This document shows, piece after piece, positions 7,686 through 12,360 of a stretch of DNA of 33,512 nucleotides. Each line of letters begins with the position of its first letter. The stretch's first letter is position 1. Below the pieces are notes generated by a model that was given only the letters and a program-made list of their open reading frames with translations, was not told the DNA's origin and made no database searches. The DNA is from a virus. Lineage: Duplodnaviria; Caudoviricetes. The stretch covers positions 1 through 33,512 of IMG/VR virus record IMGVR_UViG_3300006169_000108; one strand, 5' to 3'. Both the position numbers and the translations under genes were made by a program.

Positions 7686-7853
7686 GTGGACACGCCTCCG
7701 ACCTACGCCTACGAGGAACTCCGCACCGCAGCCAAGCTGATCAAAGACCGGCACGGCGAGCGCCTCGACCGCGAGACCGCGCAGGCCGCGCTGCTGCTGG
7801 CCCGCTTCGTCGACACCTACCTCGACCTGAACGACGAAACCGAGGGCCGCTAA
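7686..7853 (+). CDS. Small hypothetical protein (55 aa), absent from the ORF track
   Basis: MDTPPTYAYEELRTAAKLIKDRHGERLDRETAQAALLLARFVDTYLDLNDETEGR; -10 TAGGCT (7674-7679) 6 nt before GTG; high GC3. Confidence 0.65.
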   Translation: MDTPPTYAYEELRTAAKLIKDRHGERLDRETAQAALLLARFVDTYLDLNDETEGR

Positions 7854-10465
7854 CCACTCGCCCGCGGATCGTTCGGCGGCAACGGCGCCATCCGCAGCGC
7901 GCGCCGCTCCACCACCGTCGCCGCCCGCCGGCCCGCCACCCGCGCCGTGTTCAACGGGATCACCGATGCCCCATCACTCTCCTGGCGGGCAGACGGGCGC
8001 GACACCCGCACCTGCCCCCGCACCCCCTCCAGATGCGTGGTGAGCATGGCCAGGGTGTCGATCCGGTTCGGGGACTTCTGACCTTCCTGCCACGTGCAGT
8101 TGTGCACGAGCAGTCCCCCGGCGAAGAACTCGTGGTCCTCGGCCACTGTCAGGTCATACACCGGAACCGGCGGCCCGCCCACGGGCTCGACACTGAGCAC
8201 GGTCGTACTTGGCCCGTCGAGCCTCGGCGGTGTACCGAGCTCGCGCCTGCTCGCGGCGCCTGTCGGCGTTGTGATCCTCACGGCACTGCGCCGTGCAGTA
8301 CTTGGACCGCTGCCCAGTCGAGAGGAACTCGCCGCTGCAATTGAGGCAGACGCGAGCGGTGGGCTTTCGGGTGGCCCACTCGTCACGTCGATGCGCGCTG
8401 CGAGTGTTGGCATCCCAGGCTGACCAGCCTCGGTCAGGTGCGTGGAGAGCAGCGTGCTCTCCGGCGGGCATGGCGCGCAGGTTGTCAGGGCCGTTGTTGG
8501 ACTTGTCCTCGTCCTCGTGGTGAACCTCCCACCCCTCGGGGATGTCACCGTGCACTGAGCTCCATATGTCGCGATGGAGCAGGCGCTGACGCTCGCCCGC
8601 TCGCTGGCGGTGCTTGTAGTAGCCGTCCTTGTCGAGGGCGTAGTCCCGACCTTCGAAGGTGACATATTGGCGGGTGCGAGGCCGGGGCACGCCACCATTC
8701 TATGTCCTGGGGTGATAAACCGGAGCTGCTTCCAGCCGTGACCCTCCACCCACATCCGGTGCTCCGGAGTCGCCCGCACCACGTGGCCATCCGCGGTCCG
8801 CACCTCGAGCAGCTCCCGCACCCCGGTCTGCCCCGACCACGTCACTGCGCGCCACCCGCTACGCGTCAGTACGCGATCACGAGTCGTCACCTGCTCGATG
8901 GACTTCTGGCCCATCTCGGTCAGCACCGGCGTGCCAGCCGGGAAGCACGCCTCGAACTCCAACCGGGCCAACCGGCCCAACATGCACGCCCGACCCGTCT
9001 CGAACGCGCCCGCCACACTCTCCGCCCGAACCCGCTTCGACTGCTTCGGAGTAATGCTCACGACCCGCGGGCCCGTCGACCCGGCGTCGACGATCTGGCG
9101 GAACACCGGCAGCAGGTCGAACAGCTCCTTGAACTCCCCGGCCTGCTCGTCGCCGCGGGCGCGGAGCTCCTCGAGCGCGAAGTGCGGGCGGGAGTCGTCC
9201 CCGTTGGCCAGCTTGTCGTCGGGCACGTCGGCCAACGCCACCGCCTGCCGGTAGAGCCTCGCCCACGCGTCCGGGATCGAGGTGCGCATGCCCAGGTTGT
9301 GTTCCTGCACGATTCGCGCCGCCCCGTGCCGCACCCACGCCAAACATGCCTTGCGTGCCCACGCCGCCTGCGACAACTGGCCGGACAGGTCGTCGGTGAA
9401 CACGATCTTGCCTGAGCGGGTCACGCCGGCCACCAGGATGCCGGCCGCGTCGCCCTTGCCGGTGTCGGCCGGGTCCACCCCGACGGCCACCATCTCGAAG
9501 GCCGGGCGCTTGTCCTCGGGGATGCGATGCTGGTCGAACCAGGCGTACTGGAAGATGCCGCCCTCGAGCGGGGCGGGCCGACCCTGATACAGGGCAGCGA
9601 AGTCCCGCTCACCCACATCGGCGCGGACCTGCTCCCAGTCTTTCGTGGTCCGGCCCCGCGCGGAGATCATCCACTCGCCGGCGGGGCGCTCGAGCGCGTC
9701 CTCGGTCTCCCCGTCGGCCAGGGCGGGGATGTTCACCAGCGGCCAACCCTGCTCGATCATCCGGCCGGACAGGTCGTCTTCGTGCCATCTGGTGGCGATG
9801 ATCATCGCTGGGGAGCCCGGGGCCAGACGAGTACGCGCGACCGACGTCCACCACTCGTGCAGGTTTTCCCGCACCGCCTCACTGTCGGCCTGCTCCCGGC
9901 CCTTGAGCGGGTCGTCCACGACCAGCACATCGGCCGGGCGACCAGTCAGGGCGCCACCCACACCGACCGAGTACAGCCCGCCCTTGCGACCCTCGATGCC
10001 CCAGTCAGTGGCGTCCTGGTGGGACTTGTCCAGCGGCAGGCACAGCTCCGGATGGGTACGCAGCATGTTCCGCACGTCGCGGCCGGTGCGGCGCGCCAGG
10101 GTCTGCGCGAAGCTGATGTTGACGATGCGACGGTCCGGGTTGTCACACAACATCCACACGATCAACCACTGCAGCAGCGAACTCTTGCCCTCCTGCGGGC
10201 TCATCGAGATCACCAGCCGGCCGTCGTGGGTCGTGACGGTGTCCCGCATCTTCCGCGCAATCAGCTCCAACGCGGGGGTGCGCTTCGTGCGCATGTCGAA
10301 CCGCTCCGCGAAATCCAGCGCCGTCGGATGCTGCTCCACCAGCACCCGCCGGTTCCCGCCCGGATCCCGCGCCAGCAGGGCGTCCCGCTCGCGGCGCAGC
10401 TCCTGCAGACGTTGCAGCTTCGCCAGCCGCACCGCGGGCAGGCTCCCCGGATCGTCGGTGGTCAC
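7850..10465 (-). CDS. terL: Terminase large subunit, intein-containing
   Basis: Walker A ISMSPQEGKS, Walker B VLVVDDP, TRWHEDDL, ALYQGRP, nuclease GVDP...SPNRID; GTG start 7 nt after -10 TAGCGT. Confidence 0.92.
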   Translation of the reverse strand: MTTDDPGSLPAVRLAKLQRLQELRRERDALLARDPGGNRRVLVEQHPTALDFAERFDMRTKRTPALELIARKMRDTVTTHDGRLVISMSPQEGKSSLLQWLIVWMLCDNPDRRIVNISFAQTLARRTGRDVRNMLRTHPELCLPLDKSHQDATDWGIEGRKGGLYSVGVGGALTGRPADVLVVDDPLKGREQADSEAVRENLHEWWTSVARTRLAPGSPAMIIATRWHEDDLSGRMIEQGWPLVNIPALADGETEDALERPAGEWMISARGRTTKDWEQVRADVGERDFAALYQGRPAPLEGGIFQYAWFDQHRIPEDKRPAFEMVAVGVDPADTGKGDAAGILVAGVTRSGKIVFTDDLSGQLSQAAWARKACLAWVRHGAARIVQEHNLGMRTSIPDAWARLYRQAVALADVPDDKLANGDDSRPHFALEELRARGDEQAGEFKELFDLLPVFRQIVDAGSTGPRVVSITPKQSKRVRAESVAGAFETGRACMLGRLARLEFEACFPAGTPVLTEMGQKSIEQVTTRDRVLTRSGWRAVTWSGQTGVRELLEVRTADGHVVRATPEHRMWVEGHGWKQLRFITPGHRMVACPGLAPANMSPSKVGTTPSTRTATTSTASERASVSACSIATYGAQCTVTSPRGGRFTTRTRTSPTTALTTCAPCPPESTLLSTHLTEAGQPGMPTLAARIDVTSGPPESPPLASASIAAASSSRLGSGPSTARRSAVRITTPTGAASRRELGTPPRLDGPSTTVLSVEPVGGPPVPVYDLTVAEDHEFFAGGLLVHNCTWQEGQKSPNRIDTLAMLTTHLEGVRGQVRVSRPSARQESDGASVIPLNTARVAGRRAATVVERRALRMAPLPPNDPRASG
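8099..8947 (-). mobile_element. Intein (283 aa) in the terminase nuclease domain
   Basis: Block A CFPAGTPV, block B ATPEHRMW, block F VYDLTV, block G LVHN followed by Cys+1. Confidence 0.92.
8154..8690 (-). CDS. HNH homing endonuclease nested in the intein in a different reading frame
   Basis: GY...LHRDIW...IPEGWEVHHEDEDKSNNGPDNL...EHAALH plus CLNC...YCTAQC zinc finger; -10 TAGAAT (8697-8702) 6 nt before GTG. Confidence 0.88.
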   Translation of the reverse strand: MPRPRTRQYVTFEGRDYALDKDGYYKHRQRAGERQRLLHRDIWSSVHGDIPEGWEVHHEDEDKSNNGPDNLRAMPAGEHAALHAPDRGWSAWDANTRSAHRRDEWATRKPTARVCLNCSGEFLSTGQRSKYCTAQCREDHNADRRREQARARYTAEARRAKYDRAQCRARGRAAGSGV

Positions 10466-10505: not shown

Positions 10506-11072
10506 TCATTCGGGGGTGCGACGGGCCCGTGTGCAACGCCTGCACTGCCGAGCACCTGTGCTCGGGATGATGTACACGTCCGCCTGAGGGCCTGAAAGTG
10601 GATGGTTGCGCTTGCACTCAGTCATAGCCCGGCGGCGATGGCGCACGCCCGTGGGCGTGGCCTCGTTGTTCTGCGTCGGAGTCTGAAGCACTAAGTGATC
10701 CGGGTTCACGCAACGACGGTGCAGGCACGCCCGCCCGCCAGGGCAGTCGACGGATCTGTCGTGGCACGCGTGACCCACGTGCATCCCGGCAGGAATGGCC
10801 CCATGGGCGCGCTTGAAGGCTTCTCGGTGTGCCCCACCCCCTCGGGGGAGCAGGCCGTACCCGTCACGAGTGCCGACGCATCCCCTCCAGAGCCAGCACC
10901 CGGGAAGGGTCTCCTTGTCGAGAGAGTCGAAATGGCGATCAGCTCGGACTAGTCCGAAGCCGGAAAGAGTTCCCTCGGCACGGTGTCGGCGATAGCAAGC
11001 ACTGCATAAGCCACGTCCAGCAACCGGCATCATCCTGTCGCAACTACGACAGGTGACCAAGGTCCTCGGCAC
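10506..11072 (-). CDS. Free-standing HNH endonuclease
   Basis: CWLWRG...DGYG...AHR...HACH...CVNPDHL...QNN and C-terminal CKRNH...RQCRRC; -10 TACTAT 6 nt before GTG. Confidence 0.88.
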   Translation of the reverse strand: MPRTLVTCRSCDRMMPVAGRGLCSACYRRHRAEGTLSGFGLVRADRHFDSLDKETLPGCWLWRGCVGTRDGYGLLPRGGGAHREAFKRAHGAIPAGMHVGHACHDRSVDCPGGRACLHRRCVNPDHLVLQTPTQNNEATPTGVRHRRRAMTECKRNHPLSGPQADVYIIPSTGARQCRRCTRARRTPE

Positions 11073-11095: not shown

Positions 11096-11674
11096 TTACG
11101 CGAGGCGTGCGAAGACGATCACTTGCGAAAGATACGAGTGCGCGGACCGGTCGAGGTCGCCGCCGCAGGTCACCAGCCGCAGCTCCGGACCGTCGGTGTC
11201 GGAGTACACCTCGCGGGTCGGGAAATCCGCCTTGTCCACCGTCTGCGTCCGCGTCACCGCGAACCGCTTGGTCCCCTGCGGAGTATCGACAGTGATCTCG
11301 TCACCCGCAGCGAGAGTGTGGAACCCGGCCCCGAACCCCGGGCGGCCACCACCGTTGACGTGCGCCAACACCACCGCCGGGCCATCCTCACCCGGCCTCG
11401 GGCCCCGCTCGTACACACCGGCCTGCATCGGCTGCGCCAACGGCGGCACCTGGATGGTGCGATCCGGGTTCAACCCCACCCCCACCAGGGACGACGACAC
11501 CCCCAACGTCGGAATCGACACCCGAAACCCGTCCAGCGCCGAAGGCTGCTGAACCTGCTGGGCGGCCGCCACCGACCCCGCACCCTGCGGCGGGGCGGGA
11601 TCGGTGGCGGTGCTGCAACCGGCCGCGAGCATCACCGCGAGAACGGTGGTGGCAAAGATGCCCGCCGGCCGCAT
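11096..11674 (-). CDS. Class F sortase (lipoprotein)
   Basis: Lipobox LAAG-C; GPRPGEDGPAVVLAHV (catalytic His), LRLVTCGG (catalytic Cys), KADFPTREVY. Confidence 0.88.
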   Translation of the reverse strand: MRPAGIFATTVLAVMLAAGCSTATDPAPPQGAGSVAAAQQVQQPSALDGFRVSIPTLGVSSSLVGVGLNPDRTIQVPPLAQPMQAGVYERGPRPGEDGPAVVLAHVNGGGRPGFGAGFHTLAAGDEITVDTPQGTKRFAVTRTQTVDKADFPTREVYSDTDGPELRLVTCGGDLDRSAHSYLSQVIVFARLA

Positions 11675-12360
11675 CAGATGGCGCCCGTGCTGGCGGAACC
11701 CTCGGGCACCTCACGCACCTGGTCACCGGACACGTCAGCGGTCGAGTCGTCGTCGTCGACCGGGTTCAGCGGCACGTCAGTGACCACAGGGGCGTCGATG
11801 CAGAAGTTCAGGGCGCGCTGACGGTCGTGGAACAGGCCCCACAGCTCGTTGGTGCCCGGCTCGAAGGTGCGAGCGATGAGCTCGTCAGAGATGCGGCCCG
11901 AGTCGGCGGAGTACGTGTCGTCGCACTCGAGGTCGGCGATCGCCTCACGCAGCTCGCCGTTGGCGGGCGGGGGCGTGGTGGTCGGCTCGACGGTCGGTTC
12001 CGGGTCCGTGGTGGGCTCCGGCTCGACGGTCGGCTCGGGGTCCGTGGTGGGTTCGGGGTCCGTCGTCGGCTCCGGGTCCTCGCTGCCGGTGCACAGCTGG
12101 ATGGTCGCGGCGGCCTTCGCGTCGAGGATGGCCTGCTCGAGCCCGGCGATCGCGACAGCGTCGGTGGCGATGTCGAGGTCGTGGGTGTCGAACGCGTTCT
12201 GCGCCGCGCGCACCGTGGCGTCGACGTCGACGAGCGCGGAACACTCAGGGGTGCCCGGCACGGGGGTGTCCTGTTCGGCCAGCGCGGAACCTGCGCCGAA
12301 CACCAGCCCACCAGCAAGCACAACGGCGCCCACCAGGGCGGAAGCAGAACGGCGCATCAC
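11674..12360 (-). CDS. Secreted acidic protein, probable sortase substrate
   Basis: Signal peptide ending SALA-E; PEPTTD/PEPTVE repeats; C-terminal QVREVPEGSASTG-AI; stop overlaps the sortase start. Confidence 0.7.
   Translation of the reverse strand: MMRRSASALVGAVVLAGGLVFGAGSALAEQDTPVPGTPECSALVDVDATVRAAQNAFDTHDLDIATDAVAIAGLEQAILDAKAAATIQLCTGSEDPEPTTDPEPTTDPEPTVEPEPTTDPEPTVEPTTTPPPANGELREAIADLECDDTYSADSGRISDELIARTFEPGTNELWGLFHDRQRALNFCIDAPVVTDVPLNPVDDDDSTADVSGDQVREVPEGSASTGAI
11980..12079 (-). repeat. 18-bp coding tandem repeats (PEPTTD/PEPTVE, about five units)
   Basis: Visible in both protein and DNA. Confidence 0.8.

Follow-up and report, generated by a model that had tools for sequence, protein, structure and literature searches.

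We analysed a 33,512-nucleotide stretch of a caudoviral genome (IMG/VR record IMGVR_UViG_3300006169_000108; hereafter the window), a virus record that is 44% complete. The minus strand encodes a large terminase (terL; 7850..10465; PHROG 38, E 5e-78; Terminase_6N) in a single 901-codon open reading frame that is free of stops from 10555 to 7850, with GTG 10465 as the likely start. The nuclease domain is interrupted by a class-1 intein of 283 aa (8099..8947, minus strand; LEFEA/C...HN/CTWQEGQKSPNRID), for which TIGR01445 and TIGR01443 both score above cutoff; Pfam intein models match the insert below cutoff. As the initial annotation of this DNA had stated, the splicing blocks are intact. The N-terminal splicing region (8693..8947, minus strand) carries blocks A and B with C1 and the block-B T60xxH63, and the C-terminal region (8099..8161, minus strand) carries blocks F and G (VYDL...VHN) with the block F Asp and the His-Asn end; together with the +1 Cys, these make up the complete class-1 motif set. 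The best PDB sequence match of the intein is the Mtu RecA mini-intein (E 3e-4), and a single-sequence AF2 model was unusable (pLDDT 35). A related viral contig (L009) has an empty intein site (LEYEC/CQWLEGQKSPNRID), and the 588-aa extein-only TerL of the window has the length of the L009 TerL, with 74.8% identity over 559 aa. Self-excision of the intein from the protein is predicted, since terL is a packaging gene and cultured phages share the layout. With the L009 TerL as query, the closest cultured TerL proteins (34-37% identity) come from Rhodococcus, Mycobacterium and Gordonia phages, and because of these neighbours an actinobacterial host is likely for the window phage.

The centre of the intein is occupied twice. 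In the terminase frame, 179 codons without a stop (8156..8692, minus strand) read as a Thr/Ser/Pro/Ala-rich filler, as initially described, with these four residues making up 92 of the 179, and in the overlap the second position of terL codons reaches a G+C of 0.76, up from 0.50. Family profile searches (Pfam, PHROG and the TIGR intein models) gave no match to an endonuclease family in the intein's own frame. Frame 3, at offset +2 from terL, encodes a complete 178-aa HNH endonuclease with a CxxC..CxxxC zinc finger (8154..8690, minus strand), confirming the shifted-frame protein proposed in the initial annotation. This gene starts at a GTG and ends at a TGA inside block F, where it is read in GTG TAT GAC as had been claimed. 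The protein matches Pfam HNH_3 (residues 37-80; E 1.6e-14) and PHROG 15471 (E 6.6e-22), and its AF2 model, built with a 46-sequence alignment, has a pLDDT of 91. The best PDB match is I-HmuI, by structure (1u3e, E 4.7e-4) and weakly by sequence (E 0.059). Residues H57, H58, N66, N70, H79 and H83 are conserved and form a beta-beta-alpha-metal motif, in which we take them to be the catalytic His and the metal ligands. Three metagenome proteins (P0001-3) with 68-72% identity to the nested HNH have start, length and end identical in position. The window therefore does not have the layout of a canonical bifunctional intein, with its endonuclease in frame: the HNH ORF is offset by +2, the intein is contiguous and the host frame is open, as in inteins with an out-of-frame endonuclease.

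The terminase frame indeed stays open throughout. All five dipeptides able to make a host-frame stop are encoded by safe codon pairs (VT as GTC ACC and LN as CTC AAT, the two examples given initially, plus LD as CTC GAC, LR as CTG CGC and LS as CTC TCG), and under extein codon usage the chance of the filler frame staying open is 0.03. The high GC3 reported for the HNH gene holds in part: a shift is seen (0.76), but the value lies below the 0.90 of the extein. A close-homologue alignment scan of metagenomes gave 78 pattern matches, none of which was confirmed.

The arrangement recurs widely. An IMG/VR scan seeded with the HNH confirmed 567 stretches, of which the best 80 were kept; in 59 of these the HNH lies at +2 inside a contiguous intein whose frame is open, in one it is nested at +1, seven lie between split-intein halves, and 13 are without an intein. 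The corresponding host frame contains 3-11 stops in all 13 intein-less loci. A second scan used the intein as seed and made no use of the HNH; its 80 viral and 40 genome loci yielded 117 complete inteins: 88 with a +2 HNH (six of them short decayed remnants), 26 mini-inteins and three others, proportions that, like those of the first scan, hold inside one clade only because loci were ranked by similarity to the window's proteins. No in-frame endonuclease, which would speak against the shifted-frame claim, occurs in the HNH-seeded set (best 80 of 567) or among the 117 intein-seeded inteins, and nesting at +2 is the majority state in both (59/80 and 88/117). The +2 offset was recorded in 145 locus entries, 120 of them non-redundant. 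The matches of a tblastn search of GenBank phages with the HNH included five distinct ones at +2 inside inteins of terminase frames (phiCDHM19, Highwayman, TJE1, LS06-2018-MD07 and MT838676), and genome records with the nested layout include Nocardiopsis, Frankia, Glycomyces, Roseomonas, Bacteroides and MAGs of several further phyla. Out-of-frame nesting is the usual state of this clade, which spans many host phyla. The window's exact insertion site is also used in L014, L093, L141, L175 and others; in most members the intein sits farther along the protein by about 14 residues, where the nuclease domain has its last acidic motif, and some members interrupt the ATPase domain or lie in portal-type genes. 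Of 96 loci, 83 keep the HH..N..NL..H...H motif intact, and C1 and the terminal Asn occur in all of 120 loci, a count partly owed to the boundary-calling method.

Both frames were compared across homologues, as the initial annotation had suggested. In nine close pairs (two near-identical), pooled pN/pS was 0.22 for the HNH frame, 1.23 for the filler, 0.20 for IntN and 0.14 for the extein, and differences were concentrated at HNH codon position 3. Where estimable, dN/dS of the HNH frame was 0.06-0.28 in pairs drawn from relatives of the window locus. These relatives indicate that the HNH frame is under purifying selection and the filler under none. The filler value exceeds 1 because of the frame overlap, a by-product that was also noted for the host frame of dnaX in the accessible text of Phillips et al. 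(bioRxiv 10.64898/2026.09.14.751524). In the 20 free or split members of the family, the median number of stops is about 5 at offset +2 versus about 26 at +1; frame 3 is thus the easiest to keep open, which may explain its use in several published same-strand cases. At 65 nested loci, 205 host-frame stops were expected and none observed, though an open frame was part of the definition of a nested locus, which makes this comparison circular in part. More fairly compared, the host frame is open in 60 of 67 intein-flanked loci versus 0 of 13 free loci. Such figures indicate that selection keeps the host frame stop-free.

We consider it likely that the HNH is made from its own internal promoter. 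TAGAAT (8697..8702, minus strand) is a predicted -10 element separated from the GTG by 6 nt; the HNH frame reads its TAG as a stop. The hexamer is encoded by the rare codons GGA CAT AGA (GGA 0/42 and AGA 1/54 in the N-extein) and has a synonymous-shuffle p of about 0.01. A consensus scan of the window found no full sigma-70 promoter, no -35 is recognisable upstream of TAGAAT (p about 0.06-0.07), and no strong Shine-Dalgarno (SD) sequence precedes the window GTG (best 4/6, p 0.29). The start has the geometry of a leaderless one, with a -10 hexamer at 6 nt and no SD.

Across the family, promoters were scored with a sigma-70 weight matrix against synonymous shuffles, after dropping rows with IntN more than 80% identical (177 to 144). 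Just upstream of the HNH start the score reaches z 11-12 in 120 non-redundant loci; a control window farther upstream gives z 2.8-4.2. Once loci with no start near block B were dropped from the gap analysis (120 to 96), the distance from -10 to start was exactly 6 nt in 24 loci, 5 nt in three, 7 nt in none and any other value in at most seven, a peak that does not represent 24 independent events because the loci share ancestry. The internal leaderless promoter of the initial annotation thus finds support both in the hexamer read at 8702-8697 and in this family-wide signal (24/96; z 11-12). A strong SD is present at 1 of 32 short-gap loci versus 12 of 38 long-gap loci, the pattern expected of leaderless and leadered transcripts; SD enrichment overall is weak (z 2.4). 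For the promoter/SD test (n = 53), close pairs were reduced to one row each, and two loci for which no start had been called were removed. Phage phiCDHM19 has TTGACA-17-TATAAT plus an SD. Some enrichment in the motif is also seen in mini-inteins (z 2.4-2.9; HNH-bearing versus mini difference, p 0.02-0.07), several of which have kept TAnnnT in the corresponding place. The promoter signal may therefore be owed in part to the D-x-hydrophobic codons of the intein itself or to relics. In the window, a predicted RNA hairpin over the HNH start (8661..8706, minus strand; -21.3 kcal/mol, z -2.3, 7/200 shuffles as good) would mask the GTG on the long terL mRNA, and its 5' arm would be absent from a leaderless transcript. 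A start-masking hairpin as a family-wide feature was rejected: 7 of 96 loci have z below -2, versus 5 and 10 of 96 in controls, and the mean z is 0.1.

The intein is likely to be mobile by homing, judging from indirect signs: the empty L009 allele and sequence comparisons. Extein dS exceeds IntN dS in four pairs (L050/82, L065/80, L032/34 and L063/69), and two others (L031/53 and L042/56) do not have the lower dS in IntN. Phages phiCD119 and phiCDHM19 differ by 3 substitutions over about 1250 nt spanning the intein and by about 55 in the roughly 760 nt upstream; the near-identity covers the intein and about 180 nt upstream, before which divergence is about 7%. Free-standing members of the HNH family adjoin intein-less terL or terS, and invasion of a mini-intein by a free-standing HNH, the origin put forward in the initial annotation, is plausible on that account. 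Any such event would be ancestral and not local, because the window element is one member of a large clade, and present-day mini-inteins look like deletion derivatives: the L136 mini-intein lacks, in frame, 489 nt of an L135-like intein. The splicing-domain tree shows minis and remnants dispersed among its branches (22 changes for 24 rows). In phage CL2, the HNH lies between split-intein halves (IntN seen). A quick, unrooted search for the HNH tree left 54 of 119 branches open; one branch, with a support of 98, includes seven free-standing members and all six split-intein members in the tree, with L051 and L089. Deep congruence between the HNH and splicing-domain trees was not found (Mantel rho 0.02), and nearest neighbours agree in 44 of 96 cases. 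The tree has no root and little resolution, so it gives no order among free, nested and split states; deep distances are uncorrelated as well, and the invasion origin is no more than plausible.

Taken together, the window probably encodes a mobile intein with two genes on one DNA, in which a splicing domain surrounds an excised filler and a frame-3 HNH homing enzyme is translated separately from a leaderless transcript. The terL mRNA would be translated through the filler, and the intein would splice out with the filler to leave a 588-aa TerL. A separate leaderless transcript from the internal -10 would give the HNH protein, which could nick or cut intein-less terL near LEFEA/CTWQ, like I-HmuI. 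Recombinational repair would then copy the whole element into the cut terL, and the local hairpin may silence the HNH start on the terL mRNA.

The HNH protein could also be real but have the long terL mRNA as its template, translated through internal initiation or as a TerL-IntN-HNH fusion made by a -1 frameshift, the -10 being incidental. The window's lack of a -35 and the similar hexamers kept in minis fit such a route, as do the SD motifs, rather than promoters, given for the dnaX +2 ORF in the accessible text of Phillips et al. 2026. A frameshift fusion is unlikely in the window since an HNH-frame stop, the TAG of TAGAAT, stands only three codons before the start; no slippery heptamer occurs there, the median upstream open stretch in 96 loci is 6 codons, and nine of them have an XXXYYYZ motif. 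Internal initiation would have no strong SD to rely on in the window and would face the predicted hairpin, which would mask the GTG on the long mRNA. We regard translation from the long mRNA as unlikely. An artefact, in which two compensating sequencing indels broke a canonical in-frame HNH intein, is conceivable for a locus known from a single metagenomic contig, but such an origin requires a shadow frame of 179 codons with no stop, the +2 offset is shared by the 145 locus entries (120 non-redundant), cultured phages included, and the top 150 of 1.8 billion representatives hold no protein of terminase-fusion length (the longest being 610 aa, with six HNH stretches, and 393 aa). We give this explanation practically no weight.

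Two further alternatives concern what the HNH does. The window copy might be a decaying relic, unexpressed or inactive within a functional family: its clade is rich in decay (26 minis and six remnants among 117), and the window HNH lacks the second zinc finger of longer members. Yet its catalytic and zinc-ligand residues are intact, P0001-3 keep the start, length and end at 68-72% identity, and the rare-codon -10 is retained, which makes a relic very unlikely. HK97 gp74 is an example of a packaging-accessory HNH, and the nested protein could be a domesticated accessory of this kind, co-expressed with TerL, and not a homing enzyme. The free-standing family members beside terS or terL would suit that role, but the HNH is absent from the close relative L009, has been lost by in-frame deletion in L136 and has an I-HmuI-like fold, and its family also nests in inteins of portal-type genes, in other hosts and at many TerL sites; a packaging role is thus very unlikely.

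The preferred reading, of a mobile intein with a separately translated homing enzyme, has precedents. Out-of-frame endonucleases in contiguous inteins are already known (Gosselin 2025; Phillips 2026). Actinobacteriophage inteins carry an endonuclease VII-like enzyme in frame 3, and antisense LAGLIDADG and Vsr enzymes also occur, as described in the accessible text of Gosselin, Arsenault and Gogarten 2025 (bioRxiv 10.1101/2025.01.02.630785); the alternate-frame endonucleases in actinophage inteins mentioned in the initial annotation are thereby borne out. Like the window, these are contiguous phage inteins with an unstructured in-frame insert and a same-strand frame-3 endonuclease, and their proposed origin is likewise a free-standing endonuclease invading an intein. 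Theirs, however, matches T4 endonuclease VII (1E7D), whereas the window's is HNH_3/I-HmuI-like, with zinc fingers. HNH and intein queries matched none of the frame-3 endonuclease VII phages named in the accessible part of that preprint; for the window HNH, Pfam gave HNH_3 only and no endonuclease VII was among the fold matches listed, the Gosselin set being compared by its description. The accessible text lists HNH inteins as in-frame only and calls out-of-frame architectures rare, in contrast to the present clade, where nesting is the usual state. A cyanobacterial dnaX intein with a +2-frame LAGLIDADG enzyme (Phillips et al. 2026, accessible text) shares the +2 overlap, a disordered filler, omega below 1 in the endonuclease frame and above 1 in the host frame, and coexisting mini and empty alleles. 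It differs from the present clade in its enzyme family, chromosomal host gene and single insertion site, and that text offers SD motifs and no promoter analysis.

The ShiLan domain, a frame-3 HNH in phage methylases (Arsenault et al. 2025, PMC11855218), resembles the window in its zinc fingers, frame, GTG start and open host frame, and leaderless initiation was suggested for it. Unlike the window intein, ShiLan as presented there has no splicing domain, so its filler stays in the host protein, and no promoter was identified. Fractured genes have a separate endonuclease gene that is flanked by the two intein halves and overlaps IntC at its 3' end (Dassa et al. 2009, PMC2677866, as far as accessible), as in 7 of the best 80 (of 567) HNH-family loci and phage CL2. 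In the window, by contrast, the host frame is continuous, a 901-codon ORF suited to cis-splicing, and the enzymes of Dassa et al. are GIY-YIG and Vsr-like. Intron-encoded endonuclease genes (T4, Aeh1) have an embedded promoter and a start-masking hairpin that is restricted to the longer transcript (Edgell et al. 2010, PMC2988022, accessible text). The window HNH shares with I-HmuI and such intron genes its HNH core, its top fold match, and the predicted embedded promoter and hairpin on the longer transcript; it differs in being borne by an intein and not a group I intron, in its C-terminal zinc finger, and in a predicted start that is sigma-70-like and leaderless rather than served by a T4 late/middle promoter. 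Our literature search found no paper on an I-HmuI-like frame-3 HNH in contiguous (terminase) inteins, although subscription journals or bioRxiv supplements may list cases, and the word promoter does not occur in the main text of Gosselin 2025, Phillips 2026 or Arsenault 2025. Within the scope of that search, neither the HNH clade nor its promoter signal was found in print.

A broader reading, quite possible although we hold it only tentatively, is that this clade never has an in-frame endonuclease: its frame-3 HNH would use a promoter built from intein codons, leaderless in about one third of cases, and would move among free HNH genes beside terL and the overprinted contiguous, split and mini states. 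Current models treat out-of-frame endonucleases as rare intermediates. If the broader reading is true, overprinting would be a stable strategy and not a rare transient toward in-frame fusion, and it would directly yield natural split inteins, for which stops in the filler would suffice. Two open questions are touched, namely how inteins gained homing endonucleases and how split inteins arise; since one endonuclease family occurs in free, nested, split and mini states, some of them in cultured phages (TJE1, CL2), the models become testable. The clade also points to inteins that have likely been misread as decayed, and to hidden genes and internal promoters in many phage terminase genes annotated as single CDSs; in all five GenBank phage records above, the HNH is without a separate annotation.

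Immediately upstream of terL in the window lies a second, free-standing HNH gene (10506-11072, minus strand; PHROG 826, E 1e-23). As with the HNH gene nested in the terL intein, a predicted -10 (TACTAT) is located 6 nt ahead of its GTG, and a predicted hairpin would mask its start (z -2.6). Two further genes on the same strand (together 11096-12360) separate the terS-like gene (13076-12534) from terL: one resembles class F sortases (E 3e-44, narrowly under the cutoff), and the other encodes an acidic Pro/Thr-repeat protein that is probably secreted. In the intein-less relative L009, terL is directly preceded by terS.

HNH genes lie inside contiguous inteins at offset +1 rather than +2 in a DNA polymerase gene (L006:2632-3192) and in a terL (L051:2483-3019). 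A related TerL intein carries a frame-3 ORF of 180 codons (L150:1411-1950) that has a zinc finger and matched no HNH profile and no NCBIfam model. Another intein, within a probable minor-capsid gene (L198:629-1639, minus strand), contains a long antisense Vsr-like ORF and is of the antisense type that Gosselin 2025 (bioRxiv 10.1101/2025.01.02.630785) describes.

The terL of phiCD119 (L211:778-2595) has a fragmented annotation. It shares 96.7% identity with phiCDHM19, from which it differs by eight single-base indels that are possibly errors of an old record. In an Exiguobacterium phage (L214:990-3031) terL stops shortly past the motif at which the insertion usually lies, and an HNH of the nested-HNH family comes after it; this may be a different type of intervening element. 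In a Candidatus Methanimicrococcus MAG, a TerL that bears an intein like the window's (L190:744-3023) has two in-frame TAG codons; these may be read through as pyrrolysine, a trait of related methanogens.
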